Source of the DNA: Escherichia coli
Lineage (GTDB): Bacteria; Pseudomonadota; Gammaproteobacteria; Enterobacterales; Enterobacteriaceae
Strand: one strand, 5' to 3'
Assembly (NCBI RefSeq): GCF_002854065.1
Contig: NZ_CP024147.1
DNA length: 64,000 bases
The notes beneath the pieces were generated by a model. The model had not been told where the DNA came from. It saw only the letters and a program-made list of their open reading frames with translations, and ran no database searches. This document shows, one piece after another, positions 1 through 3,632 of this stretch. Each line of letters opens with the position of its first letter. Within the stretch, counting starts at the first letter, position 1. The position numbers and the translations under genes were made by a program.

Positions 1-282
1 ACCACGCTGATACATTTCGATCACGATATCACAACCGCCTACCAGCTCGCCGTCAACCCACAGTTGCGGGAAGGTCGGCCAGTTAGCATATTTCGGCAGT
101 TCCGCACGAATGTCCGGATTCTGCAGAATATCAACATAGGCAAAACGTTCGCCACATGCGGCAAGCGCCTGGACTGCCTGGGCAGAGAAACCGCAGCTCG
201 GCAGTTTCGGTGAACCTTTCATGTACAGCAGGATCGGGTTTTCAGCAATCTGGCGTTGGATTTTTTCGATAGTGGTGCTCAT
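1..282 (-). CDS. grxD: Monothiol glutaredoxin Grx4, N-terminal 94 codons; the gene continues past the window start
   Basis: Reverse-strand translation from ATG (complement of 280-282) gives MSTTIEKIQRQIAENPILLYMKGSPKLPSCGFSAQAV... with the CGFS monothiol motif; the frame runs off the window edge. Confidence 0.9.
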   Translation of the reverse strand, partial: MSTTIEKIQRQIAENPILLYMKGSPKLPSCGFSAQAVQALAACGERFAYVDILQNPDIRAELPKYANWPTFPQLWVDGELVGGCDIVIEMYQRG

Positions 283-616
283 TGTCTTGCTTCCTCAAAC
301 TTCTTTACGGCAGTAATCTGACATTGTAGCGGGTCAGTGCGGCATCGGAAAATAACATTTTCATCACGCTTTTGCTATTTTATCCCTTTGCTCTATTTGT
401 TGCATTTCAAATGTTCGTTTCTTCCCTGATGCACGGCAAACTGGCGTATTTATGACCATTTTTAGCTTTCACTGCTGCATTTTTTTGCGCTCGCCAACGA
501 AACGTATTTTTTAACAATAAAAGCTATTAACTTTCTCTTCTTCTATGCATTAGAATCATCAAGTTTTGTAAATCAGACGCAGGCATGATAGACCTGCCTT
601 AACAGAGGGACGCTCA

Positions 617-1444
617 GTGGCGCGGATAAACCGTATTTCGATCACGCTCTGTGCTTTACTTTTTACCACCCTGCCTTTAACGCCTATGGCCCATGCTTCA
701 AAGCAAGCCAGGGAGAGTTCTGCTACCACTCATATCACCAAAAAAGCAGATAAAAAGAAAAGCACGGCAACCACCAAAAAGACCCAGAAAGCCAGCCAGA
801 AAACAGCGAAAAAAGCCGCCAGTAAAAGTACGACCAAAAGCAAAACCGCTTCTTCCGTTAAAAAATCTTCCATTACCGCTTCTAAAAACGCCAAAACTCG
901 CAGCAAACATACCGTCAATAAAACGGCCTCAGCCAGCTTTACCGAAAAGTGTACCAAACGTAAGGGCTATAAATCGCATTGTGTGAAAGTCAAAAATGCA
1001 GCGTCAGGAACCCTTGCCGACGCACACAAAGCGAAGGTGCAAAAAGCCACAAAAGTGGCAATGAATAAACTGATGCAGCAAATTGGTAAGCCATATCGTT
1101 GGGGTGGCAGCTCACCGCGTACCGGTTTTGATTGCAGCGGCCTGGTTTATTACGCTTATAAAGATTTGGTGAAAATTCGTATTCCGCGTACGGCGAATGA
1201 AATGTATCACCTGCGTGATGCAGCGCCAATCGAACGTAGTGAACTGAAAAACGGCGACCTGGTCTTTTTCCGTACTCAGGGACGCGGTACAGCCGATCAT
1301 GTCGGCGTATATGTCGGCAACGGCAAGTTTATTCAGTCACCGCGTACGGGTCAGGAAATTCAAATCACTTCTCTCAGTGAAGACTACTGGCAGCGCCACT
1401 ATGTTGGCGCTCGCCGGGTAATGACCCCAAAAACACTTCGCTAA
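617..1444 (+). CDS. mepH: NlpC/P60-family peptidoglycan DD-endopeptidase with signal peptide and Lys/Ser/Thr-rich linker
   Basis: 275-aa ORF with N-terminal signal peptide (LCALLFTTLPLTPMAHA) and C-terminal NlpC/P60 motifs (GFDCSGLVYYAY ... ADHVGVYVG); sits between grxD and sodB. Confidence 0.85.
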   Translation: MARINRISITLCALLFTTLPLTPMAHASKQARESSATTHITKKADKKKSTATTKKTQKASQKTAKKAASKSTTKSKTASSVKKSSITASKNAKTRSKHTVNKTASASFTEKCTKRKGYKSHCVKVKNAASGTLADAHKAKVQKATKVAMNKLMQQIGKPYRWGGSSPRTGFDCSGLVYYAYKDLVKIRIPRTANEMYHLRDAAPIERSELKNGDLVFFRTQGRGTADHVGVYVGNGKFIQSPRTGQEIQITSLSEDYWQRHYVGARRVMTPKTLR

Positions 1445-1450
1445 AACTTT

Positions 1451-1488
1451 ACCCTGTTGTTACGGCAACAGGGTAAGTTCATCTTTTG
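1451..1488 (+). terminator. Putative intrinsic terminator downstream of mepH
   Basis: Inverted repeat ACCCTGTTG / CAACAGGGT with a T-rich tract a few bases downstream. Confidence 0.4.
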
Positions 1489-1571
1489 TCTCACCTTTTA
1501 ATTTGCTACCCTATCCATACGCACAATAAGGCTATTGTACGTATGCAAATTAATAATAAAGGAGAGTAGCA

Positions 1572-2153
1572 ATGTCATTCGAATTACCTGCACTACCATA
1601 TGCTAAAGATGCTCTGGCACCGCACATTTCTGCGGAAACTATCGAGTATCACTACGGCAAGCATCATCAGACTTATGTCACTAACCTGAACAACCTGATT
1701 AAAGGTACCGCGTTTGAAGGTAAATCACTGGAAGAGATTATTCGCAGCTCTGAAGGTGGCGTATTCAACAACGCAGCTCAGGTCTGGAACCATACTTTCT
1801 ACTGGAACTGCCTGGCACCGAACGCCGGTGGCGAACCGACTGGAAAAGTCGCTGAAGCTATCGCCGCATCTTTTGGCAGCTTTGCCGATTTCAAAGCTCA
1901 GTTTACTGATGCAGCGATCAAAAACTTTGGTTCTGGCTGGACCTGGCTGGTGAAAAACAGCGATGGCAAACTGGCTATCGTTTCAACCTCTAACGCGGGT
2001 ACTCCACTGACCACCGATGCGACTCCGCTGCTGACCGTTGATGTCTGGGAACACGCATATTACATCGATTATCGCAATGCACGTCCTGGCTATCTGGAGC
2101 ACTTCTGGGCGCTGGTGAACTGGGAATTCGTAGCGAAAAATCTCGCTGCATAA
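1572..2153 (+). CDS. sodB: Iron superoxide dismutase
   Basis: 193-aa [39 protein letters not shown]... with Fe/Mn-SOD signature DVWEHAYY. Confidence 0.97.
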
Positions 2154-2265
2154 TAACTGATGGCAAATGCAGCATTGCCTGATGCGCTTCGCTTACCATG
2201 CCAACGCGGATGAGGCGTTAACAGCGCATTCGGCAAGATAAATCGCACGTTGTCAGCAACTGTAA

Positions 2266-2296
2266 CGCAGAAGGTTATCCTTCTGCGTTTTTGTTT
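2266..2296 (+). terminator. Intrinsic terminator of sodB
   Basis: Perfect stem CGCAGAAGG / CCTTCTGCG with TTAT loop, followed by TTTTTGTTT. Confidence 0.75.
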
Positions 2297-2298
2297 AA

Positions 2299-3468
2299 TT
2301 AGCTGTTAGCAACGCAAACTGTTTCAGGTTGTTTTCTGGCTGACATAAACACCAGCAATAATGCCAGTCCCGCGACAATCGCCCCCATCACCGGCACAAA
2401 GCTGTATCCCAGCCCAGCGGAAATTACCGCACCACCAGCGGCTGCTCCCAGCGCATTTCCAAGATTAAAGGCACCAATATTGACTGATGAAGACAGACCT
2501 GGCGCTTCACTGGCGACACGCATCACGCGCATCTGTAACGGCGGTACGACCGCAAAGGTTGCAGCGCCCCACACCACCATGCTAATAGCTGCGCCGAACT
2601 CATTGCGGGCCAGGAACGGGATTGCCAGCATAATCACCATCAGCAGCAACAAAAAGCCTTTCAACGTGCCGTTAACTGAACGATCTGCCAGTTTGCCGCC
2701 GAGATAGTTACCGATAGAGAATCCGACACCAATCAGCACCAGCATTGCCGTGACGAACACCGGTGTTGCGTGGGTAATACTTTGCAGTACCGGAGAGATA
2801 TAGGTGTAGAGAGTAAACATTGCACCAGCTCCCAGTACCGTCGTCAGCAATGCAGACAGCACCTGCGGACGCATTAATACCGCCAGCTCTTTTTTCACTT
2901 CAGGTCGTGCCCCTGCACCACCTTTAGGTAATGAGAAGAACAGACTTACCATTGAAATCACTCCCAGCCCCGCCGTTGCCAGAAATGACATCCGCCAGCC
3001 GATGGTTTCACCCAACCAGGTCGCCGCCGGCACGCCACCGATATTTGCCAGGGTTAACCCCATAAACATAGTGGCAACTGCGCTGGCCTGTTTATGTTTT
3101 GGCACCACGCTTGCAGCCACGACTGAACCCAAACCAAAAAATGCTCCATGATTCAGGCTGGTCAAAATGCGTGAAAGCATCAGGGTCATATAATCCGGCG
3201 CGATGGCGGAAAGTACGTTGCCGAGCGTGAAAATTGCCATCAGGAAAATCAACGCACTGCGGCGGGCACGATGAGAAAGTAGAAGCGTCATCAGCGGCGC
3301 GCCAACCATTACGCCAACTGCATAGGCACTGATTAACATTCCGGCAGCGGGAATCGAGACATCCACACCGCGCGCAATGACGGGCAACAAGCCCATTGGC
3401 GAGAACTCCGTTGTCCCGATACCAAACGCGCCAATCGCCAGCGCCAGCAACGGATAGTTAATTTTCAT
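2299..3468 (-). CDS. ydhP: MFS-family transporter
   Basis: 389-aa polytopic membrane ORF; gene order sodB-ydhP-purR. Confidence 0.85.
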   Translation of the reverse strand: MKINYPLLALAIGAFGIGTTEFSPMGLLPVIARGVDVSIPAAGMLISAYAVGVMVGAPLMTLLLSHRARRSALIFLMAIFTLGNVLSAIAPDYMTLMLSRILTSLNHGAFFGLGSVVAASVVPKHKQASAVATMFMGLTLANIGGVPAATWLGETIGWRMSFLATAGLGVISMVSLFFSLPKGGAGARPEVKKELAVLMRPQVLSALLTTVLGAGAMFTLYTYISPVLQSITHATPVFVTAMLVLIGVGFSIGNYLGGKLADRSVNGTLKGFLLLLMVIMLAIPFLARNEFGAAISMVVWGAATFAVVPPLQMRVMRVASEAPGLSSSVNIGAFNLGNALGAAAGGAVISAGLGYSFVPVMGAIVAGLALLLVFMSARKQPETVCVANS

Positions 3469-3632
3469 GCCTTATCTCCACCTCTTCGCGTCATTACGCG
3501 ATATTCATTAAAGTGGCGAAAGCATGCAGCAATCACAAAAAAATGAAAATAACAAAAAGAGAAAACACTTTTGCCATTTTGCTAACAAACAGGAAGGAGA
3601 TGCGAGGGAGAACGCGCTCCCTCGAGAGGAAA

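Follow-up and report, generated by a model that had tools for sequence, protein, structure and literature searches.

The low-complexity N-terminal tail of MepH and its 12-base length polymorphism in Escherichia coli

Here we analyzed the mepH (ydhO) gene in a stretch of 64,000 nucleotides of Escherichia coli DNA (contig NZ_CP024147.1; the whole stretch is referred to below as the window), with emphasis on the lysine-, serine- and threonine-rich part of the protein that lies between the signal peptide and the NlpC/P60 catalytic domain. MepH is described as a soluble periplasmic endopeptidase that is redundant with MepS and MepM (PMC11211486). Our account, which we consider very probable as a whole, is that mature MepH begins with a disordered cationic tail selected for its composition, that the window encodes the ancestral length of 275 amino acids, that the shorter K-12 protein goes back to a deletion inside the tail, most likely by slippage, and that the three open reading frames (ORFs) overlapping it are spurious.

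The N-terminal tail and the domain behind it

A preliminary description of this DNA, made from its letters and a list of its ORFs, had pointed to a basic, probably disordered linker at residues 28-125. The peptide that it quoted (...KKADKKKSTATTKKTQKASQKTAKKAASKSTTKSKTASSVKKSSITASKNAKTRSKH...) was found verbatim in the ORF at 617-1444, and the span 698-990 corresponds to codons 28-125, the last of which ends at position 991. These residues consist of 26.5% lysine, 17% serine, 17% threonine and 13% alanine with a net charge of +26, and 10% of them are hydrophobic as compared with 30% in the remainder of MepH. The same bias is seen in the DNA, with 41.6% A and 15.0% T at 698-990 versus 24.9% A and 25.4% T across the window. 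When the 68 stop-free segments of at least 150 amino acids in the window were compared, the MepH tail (residues 28-107) had both the lowest entropy over 40 residues (2.24 bits; median 3.74, next lowest 2.73) and the highest net charge over 80 residues (+24, where the 99th percentile is +13). Measured over 25-40 residues, its entropy is 2.2 bits against a typical value of about 3.7. The composition and the charge of the tail are far beyond chance; in the window allele, residues 28-107 have a net charge of +21.

An AlphaFold2 model, which was built on an alignment of 40 close orthologues and has a mean predicted local distance difference test score (pLDDT) of 53, gives residues 14-108 a pLDDT below 50 with neither helix nor strand, and the tail itself a pLDDT of about 29-34. 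Residues 28-107 are strongly basic and, on this model, predicted to be intrinsically disordered. In this respect the composition and the AlphaFold2 disorder prediction agree with the preliminary description, up to about residue 107. Beyond that point its low-complexity span has to be shortened, as residues 108-126 form a conserved element with a Cys-x9-Cys motif.

The word linker is also to be replaced. The only neighbor of the tail on its N-terminal side is a putative Sec-type signal peptide with an A-H-A|S motif, and no lipobox could be read from the MepH N-terminus, where a leucine precedes C12 and only five hydrophobic residues stand before it; because of this, residues 28-107 would form a free N-terminal tail after signal-peptide cleavage and not an interdomain linker, with neither a folded domain nor a membrane anchor ahead of it. 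Among 40 Enterobacteriaceae orthologues, A27 is invariant and S28 is nearly so. A sequence search of the PDB returned no MepH structure and no entry that covers the residues before about 127, except for a low-complexity alignment to the linker of LytE (PDB 8i2e), which is the only PDB sequence that aligns into the tail (query residues 57-267).

The Cys-x9-Cys motif (KCTKRKGYKSHC) lies between the tail and the catalytic domain, and its two cysteines, C112 and C122, are invariant among the same 40 orthologues. Across genera the identity of residues 108-126 is about 0.65-0.68. In the AlphaFold2 model, residues 108-113 and 121-126 are the two strands of a β-hairpin in which C112 and C122 stand opposite each other; a periplasmic C112-C122 disulfide is therefore suggested and is probable on the basis of the model. 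A description of this motif was not found in the literature searched.

The catalytic domain is recognized with little doubt. Its match to the Pfam family NLPC_P60 (PF00877) scores 125.8 bits against a cut-off of 23 (E = 8e-37), and none of the 40 orthologues departs from the catalytic C173 (in DCSG) or H228 (in DHVG). Q240, the putative third polar position, which would align to the histidine of MepS, is likewise invariant. The PDB sequence matches include NlpC/P60 structures such as those of MepS/Spr (2k1g, 7v6s and 8xud), which align to residues ~149-270 with E values of ~1e-19 to 1e-20.

The length polymorphism of the tail

Alignment to K-12 MepH (YdhO, b1655, NP_416172.1), the check that the preliminary description had named, gave two proteins that are not identical. 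They are products of the same gene at the same grxD-mepH-sodB position, and the aligned residues are the same except for T99 in the window protein, which is A99 in K-12. The difference in length, 275 versus 271 amino acids, comes from one gap of four residues, Q57-K58-A59-S60, that is, from 12 bases which the K-12 gene lacks. The earlier remark that the K-12 protein may be a few residues shorter, which would point to an indel in this region, was thus borne out: the indel falls inside the described stretch, and its polarity, as argued below, is that of a deletion in K-12. Its placement at 784-795 is ambiguous by 7 bases and can be shifted up to 791-802. The 12 bases are bounded by two perfect copies of the direct repeat CCAGAAA, of which the short allele retains exactly one. 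The T99 change belongs to a pair of adjacent single-nucleotide polymorphisms (SNPs), in which the TA of the window at 910-911 is derived; outgroups and most E. coli have CG.

The polarity of the indel was examined in 80 orthologous loci, with one genome per species. The four codons are present in Escherichia albertii (275 amino acids, ..RKSNKASQKTAKK..), in Escherichia whittamii (276 amino acids) and in a divergent Escherichia genome (L006), and also in Citrobacter species (..TKTSQKTVKK..). Since the outgroups carry the 12 bases, the window allele represents the ancestral length and the K-12 allele the deletion. At the upstream repeat copy the outgroups read CAATAAA or TAATAAA, and two perfect copies are seen in E. 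coli only. Judging from these sequences, the repeat, and hence the proneness to deletion, arose within E. coli by a change from Asn to Gln.

Both alleles are common. With a 59-base query that seeds only on the long junction, the long form was matched in 1875 of 5426 complete E. coli genomes, and two queries of 179-191 bases agreed with this, one counting 1878 genomes as long and 3546 as short and the other 1874 as long and 3550 as short. About 35% of the complete E. coli genomes are therefore long and about 65% short, and nearly every genome has one or the other.

How often the short allele arose was looked at in local haplotypes, for which 1.84 kilobases (kb) covering grxD-mepH-sodB were aligned from 15 genomes after removal of the indel columns. 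In these 15 genomes the short allele is found on four haplotype groups, and for each of them the closest sequence outside the group is one with the long allele. The short sequences of K-12, O8:H8, K71-77 and E47 lie 3-5 SNPs from the long O111:H8; APEC O18 lies 5 SNPs from Nissle 1917; O157:H7 strain 9234 lies 10 SNPs from the window sequence; and YZMc3-1 is without any SNP relative to the long sequence of O157:H16 Santai. When the last pair was compared over 12 kb, the only differences were the 12-base indel and two distant SNPs (3171 and 5321).

The mechanism that we propose is that the 271-amino acid allele would arise by replication slippage, with loss of the 12 bases between two CCAGAAA copies that are spaced 12 bases apart, and that this would have happened more than once in E. 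coli. RecA-independent deletions by replication slippage, in which the direct repeats are short and lie close together, were reportedly described by Lovett and colleagues. The mepH case is like these in that the deleted segment equals one 12-base repeat period and one 7-base copy is kept; it differs in that the mechanism is read here from the end-points and in that the repeat, with 7 bases, is short, so that low rates would be expected. Because the end-points are defined by the repeat and YZMc3-1 and Santai are nearly identical, recurrent slippage deletion is favored as the most likely origin of the short allele.

One other explanation has to be taken seriously, even if we regard it as rather unlikely: the short allele may have arisen once, after which homologous recombination carried it, or the long form, from one E. 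coli lineage to another. Recombination is frequent in E. coli, the local tree spans only 1.84 kb and 15 sequences, and in the clade of K-12-like sequences the one long member (O111:H8) has short sequences around it, 3-5 SNPs away, a position that recombination could account for. However, under this explanation the near-identity of YZMc3-1 and Santai over 12 kb would call for a tract that was imported without any other marker, the deletion has its ends precisely at the perfect 7-base repeat, as is classic for slippage, and the short form stands on four distinct backgrounds. These observations fit recurrent slippage more easily.

With regard to the consequences of the deletion, the four-residue difference is most likely neutral, judging from where it falls in the protein. 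From the apparent repeated origin and the high frequency of both forms one could imagine that the indel is a contingency locus, an adaptive or phase-variable switch by which the activity of MepH is tuned. We consider it very improbable, as Tandem Repeats Finder reported no tandem repeat tract and there are only two 7-base copies, of which one is left after the deletion, so that the change is not readily reversible; moreover, the change is in frame, concerns 4 residues of a tail that has about 80 and whose length varies by 37 residues between genera, and shifts the net charge only from +21 to +20. A phase-variable simple-sequence contingency locus was also considered as a comparable system and rejected, for want of a tandem repeat and because the change is in frame. 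Neither Tandem Repeats Finder nor a generic repeat finder gave anything relevant in the tail, and the 7-base repeat came from a direct pattern search.

Least credible among the origins of the indel is an insertion or duplication in the window lineage, with the K-12 length as the ancestral one: the 12 bases do resemble the next 12 (8 of 12 are identical and both begin with CCAGAAA), as in a diverged tandem duplication, but the corresponding codons stand in E. albertii, E. whittamii, L006 and Citrobacter (..NKASQKT.., ..TKTSQKT..), and the long form is present in 35% of E. coli, across distinct local haplotype groups.

Evolution of the tail, its possible function and the overlapping reading frames

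In 80 Enterobacteriaceae genomes the tail varies in length from 61 to 98 amino acids, with 14-28% lysine, 21-44% serine plus threonine and a net charge that stays between +15 and +22. Its identity to the window sequence across genera is about 30%, versus 90% for the catalytic domain. When 19 pairs of related species were pooled, the ratio of nonsynonymous to synonymous differences per site (pN/pS) was 0.26 for the tail, as against 0.024 for the domain. Residues 28-50, which form the head of the tail, are kept slightly better (identity of ~0.4 versus ~0.3 for the rest), with S28, K42 and K47 invariant or nearly so and a KKK motif. Taken at the level of sequence comparison, the tail appears to be a disordered region that is selected for bulk composition and charge and not for its sequence or length.

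What such a tail does can be approached by comparison. The role that we find most likely is that the polycationic tail, poor in hydrophobic residues, would act as an electrostatic, sequence-independent tether that holds soluble MepH on the anionic sacculus. This is a tentative proposal, which we regard as plausible without calling it probable. The tail may also act as a handle for the NlpI-Prc proteolytic system, since the level and the half-life of MepH depend on Prc and NlpI and the protein undergoes Prc/NlpI-dependent degradation (PMC8996183).

This leads to a different view of the tail, in which it is mainly a docking site or degron for NlpI-Prc, as in MepS, and not a peptidoglycan tether. 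MepS (Spr), a paralogous endopeptidase, shares with MepH the NlpC/P60 fold, a disordered segment N-terminal to the domain and control by NlpI-Prc (PMC8996183). Its disordered N-terminus binds NlpI and folds upon binding (PMC11211486), and the slightly better conservation of residues 28-50 in MepH might mark such a site. Yet, the NlpI-binding segment of MepS makes contact through the hydrophobic side chains L24, F31, L34, V35 and V38 (PMC11211486), whereas only 10% of the residues of the MepH tail are hydrophobic, and a bulk charge that is kept over 61-98 residues exceeds what a short docking motif needs. The two proteins also differ in their anchoring: MepS, a lipoprotein, has ~36 disordered residues that include hydrophobic contacts, and MepH has a signal of the signal-peptidase-I type and a polycationic tail of 80 residues. 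A main role in docking, as suggested by the analogy with MepS, we hold to be unlikely, though worth keeping in mind, and the electrostatic tether is the function that we put forward.

Two further systems offer more distant likenesses. The disordered regions of PBP1 and RsgI in Bacillus subtilis were proposed to probe gaps in the peptidoglycan mesh (PMC9732909). As in MepH, these are disordered, low-complexity extracytoplasmic segments on cell-wall enzymes or sensors, for which bulk properties rather than sequence were proposed to matter (PMC9732909); the organism, the envelope and the enzymes are different, and the link to MepH is one of analogy only. Gram-positive NlpC/P60 hydrolases, for example LytE, have Ser/Thr-rich linkers, which likewise form a low-complexity, hydroxyl-rich spacer before the NlpC/P60 domain. 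There the spacer connects the catalytic domain with LysM or another domain that binds the wall, whereas MepH lacks a second domain and carries a lysine-rich tail. A broader proposal is that the tail is a functional, composition-encoded targeting module (for holding on to the sacculus, threading through mesh pores or docking to NlpI-Prc), with the repeated loss of QKAS in E. coli as a selected fine-tuning of its length or charge and not neutral slippage; in this combined form we find it improbable.

The preliminary description had also remarked that the A-rich DNA of this stretch yields three overlapping ORFs in other frames. All three are in the ORF list (Table 1), and they are by-products of T-poor coding DNA: because the peptide needs A-rich, T-poor codons, few stop codons occur in the other frames and three spurious ORFs result. 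In 2000 codon shuffles of the tail, the observed open runs were equalled or exceeded in 46% (693-986, plus strand), 14% (698-910, minus strand) and 25% (730-957, minus strand) of cases. In 69 orthologues, stops interrupt the three frames in 59-78% of species, and the 693-986 frame is stop-free in only 22%.

Synonymous divergence was recorded for the same gene. Pooled pS is 0.10 in codons 1-27 of the signal peptide, 0.24 in the tail and 0.36 in the catalytic domain, and the tail is below the domain in 17 of the 19 species pairs. Eyre-Walker and Bulmer are said to have reported in 1993 that synonymous divergence is lower near the 5' end of enterobacterial genes. The low 5' values in mepH are probably such a general 5'-end effect together with alignment bias, and not a trace of overlapping genes; constraint at the level of the mRNA may also act on the codons of the signal peptide and the tail. 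That one or more of the three ORFs is a real overlapping gene, as their length of 70-97 codons, their overlap with one another and the lower pooled synonymous divergence of the tail (0.24 versus 0.36) might suggest, can be practically dismissed, given that shuffles which keep the MepH peptide composition produce open runs of the same length, that most of the 69 orthologues have stops in these frames, that no Rfam or other signal was found within mepH in a scan of window positions 1-3600 and that low-complexity alignments understate differences, next to the general 5'-end drop.

Several points weigh against our account and should be read together with it. The AlphaFold2 model is weak overall and was made from a shallow alignment, and low pLDDT is an indirect sign of disorder, from which indications are obtained and no more. 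Both the cleavage of the signal peptide and the C112-C122 disulfide follow from sequence rules. The case for recurrence is built on 15 haplotypes over 1.84 kb, and short-tract recombination could give the same pattern. Neutrality is assumed from the in-frame position, the fast-evolving region and the coexistence of the alleles. Finally, no study of the MepH tail was found in the literature searched, and the function given to the tail is a conjecture.

The mepH locus, atypical alleles and implications

By every criterion that could be tested, the window locus is a member of the MepH/NlpC-P60 family, as the preliminary description had it: next to the Pfam match, the mepH DNA of the window is identical to that of genomes with a RefSeq-annotated mepH (WP_000101186.1 in E. 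coli TR01). Over 12 kb, E. coli CUWW06 and 100416 are 100% identical to the window. The gene order, with grxD upstream on the opposite strand, mepH, sodB (1572-2153) and ydhP, is the order of K-12 MG1655 (ydhO, b1655), and the GTG start of mepH is kept in 83 of 83 orthologous loci. DD-endopeptidase activity on 4-3 cross-links is attributed to K-12 MepH in the literature (PMC11211486, PMC8996183). The features of the locus are collected in Table 1.

Table 1. Features of the mepH locus, with positions in the window and residue numbers of the 275-amino acid protein.
Feature	Position	Strand	Basis or remark
Shine-Dalgarno-like AGAGGG	604-609	+	7 nucleotides 5' of GTG; read from sequence, putative
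mepH (ydhO) coding sequence	617-1444	+	GTG start, 275 amino acids plus stop; long allele; ORF list
Predicted Sec-type signal peptide, residues 1-27 (MARINR, hydrophobic core, A-H-A)	617-697	+	Sequence rules; predicted cleavage A27|S28
Polycationic K/S/T/A-rich tail of mature MepH, predicted to be disordered, residues 28-107	698-937	+	Composition, entropy, AlphaFold2
12 bases missing in K-12 (residues QKAS)	784-795	+	DNA and protein alignments with K-12 MG1655 and O157:H7 9234
CCAGAAA, upstream copy of 7-base direct repeat	784-790	+	Pattern search
CCAGAAA, downstream copy of 7-base direct repeat	796-802	+	Short allele retains exactly one copy
Two adjacent SNPs relative to K-12	910-911	+	CAT ACC here, CAC GCC in K-12; H98 synonymous, T99 versus A99
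Cys-x9-Cys element, residues 108-126	938-994	+	Invariant C112 and C122; AlphaFold2 β-hairpin
Predicted long helix ahead of catalytic domain, residues 133-154	1013-1078	+	AlphaFold2 secondary structure, pLDDT ~70-75
NlpC/P60 catalytic domain, residues 157-267	1085-1417	+	Pfam PF00877; C173 and H228 invariant
Terminator-like hairpin, 13 pairs, then T-rich run	1448-1477	+	Directly 3' of the mepH stop; consensus scan only
Alternative-frame ORF, 97 amino acids	693-986	+	ORF list; compositional by-product
Antisense ORF, 70 amino acids	698-910	-	ORF list; compositional by-product
Antisense ORF, 75 amino acids	730-957	-	ORF list; compositional by-product

A permissive Rfam scan of window positions 1-3600 gave nothing within mepH and one chance match to a small nucleolar RNA. 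Just upstream of sodB, at 1497-1601, the scan returned a match below threshold to the thermometer in the SodB 5' untranslated region (RF02775), which covers the full model length and scores 31.4 bits (E = 0.004), where the gathering score is 98.

Damaged mepH alleles were seen in a few genomes. In E. coli ST2747 (NZ_CP007394.1) a deletion of ~225 bases, equivalent to window positions 593-817, leaves mepH without ribosome-binding site, start codon and signal peptide and with only half of its tail, and the gene is marked as a pseudogene in RefSeq. Judged by this sequence, ST2747 looks like a natural mepH null, which would be consistent with the redundancy of MepS, MepM and MepH. In E. coli FCI5 (NZ_CM172810.1) 5 bases are missing at the CCAGAAA repeat, at about window positions 789-793, and the gene is annotated as frameshifted; in E. 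coli TUM2805 a deletion fuses grxD to the 3' part of mepH; and in Citrobacter amalonaticus AUH_CA_2023_1 a premature stop follows after 57 codons, in the A-rich tail. Some of these rare damaged alleles may be homopolymer sequencing errors.

Other strains are atypical around the gene. TR01, which is labelled O157:H7, has the long allele on the mepH haplotype of the window, to which it is 100% identical over 1 kb and 99.9% identical over 12 kb, whereas the other O157:H7 and O55:H7 genomes among the matches listed all combine the short allele with T99; at the mepH locus, TR01 is either an atypical strain or a recombinant. In FCI5, A4, Nissle 1917 and APEC O18, all that is left of the large helicase gene lhr beside grxD is two short pseudogene remnants, with rnt directly upstream, while lhr is of full length in K-12, O157, O111 and other sampled genomes. 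A single mepH copy was counted as plasmid-borne, on the 420,355-base record NZ_CP090612.1; this record may be a piece of chromosome that was wrongly assigned, or else a very large replicon.

RefSeq already holds the gene with its domain, and the two length alleles under separate protein accessions, and in this sense we deal with an ordinary feature that is already annotated. What is added here is the polarity of the deletion, its frequency and probable recurrence, and the point at which the disordered part ends. In the window, the allele is intact and of ancestral length, and the ORFs that overlap the mepH tail should be left out of gene annotations. In the K-12 reference the four-residue deletion is the derived state, so that its residue numbering after position 56 is shifted by 4 relative to about one third of E. 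coli genomes. The importance of these points is small.

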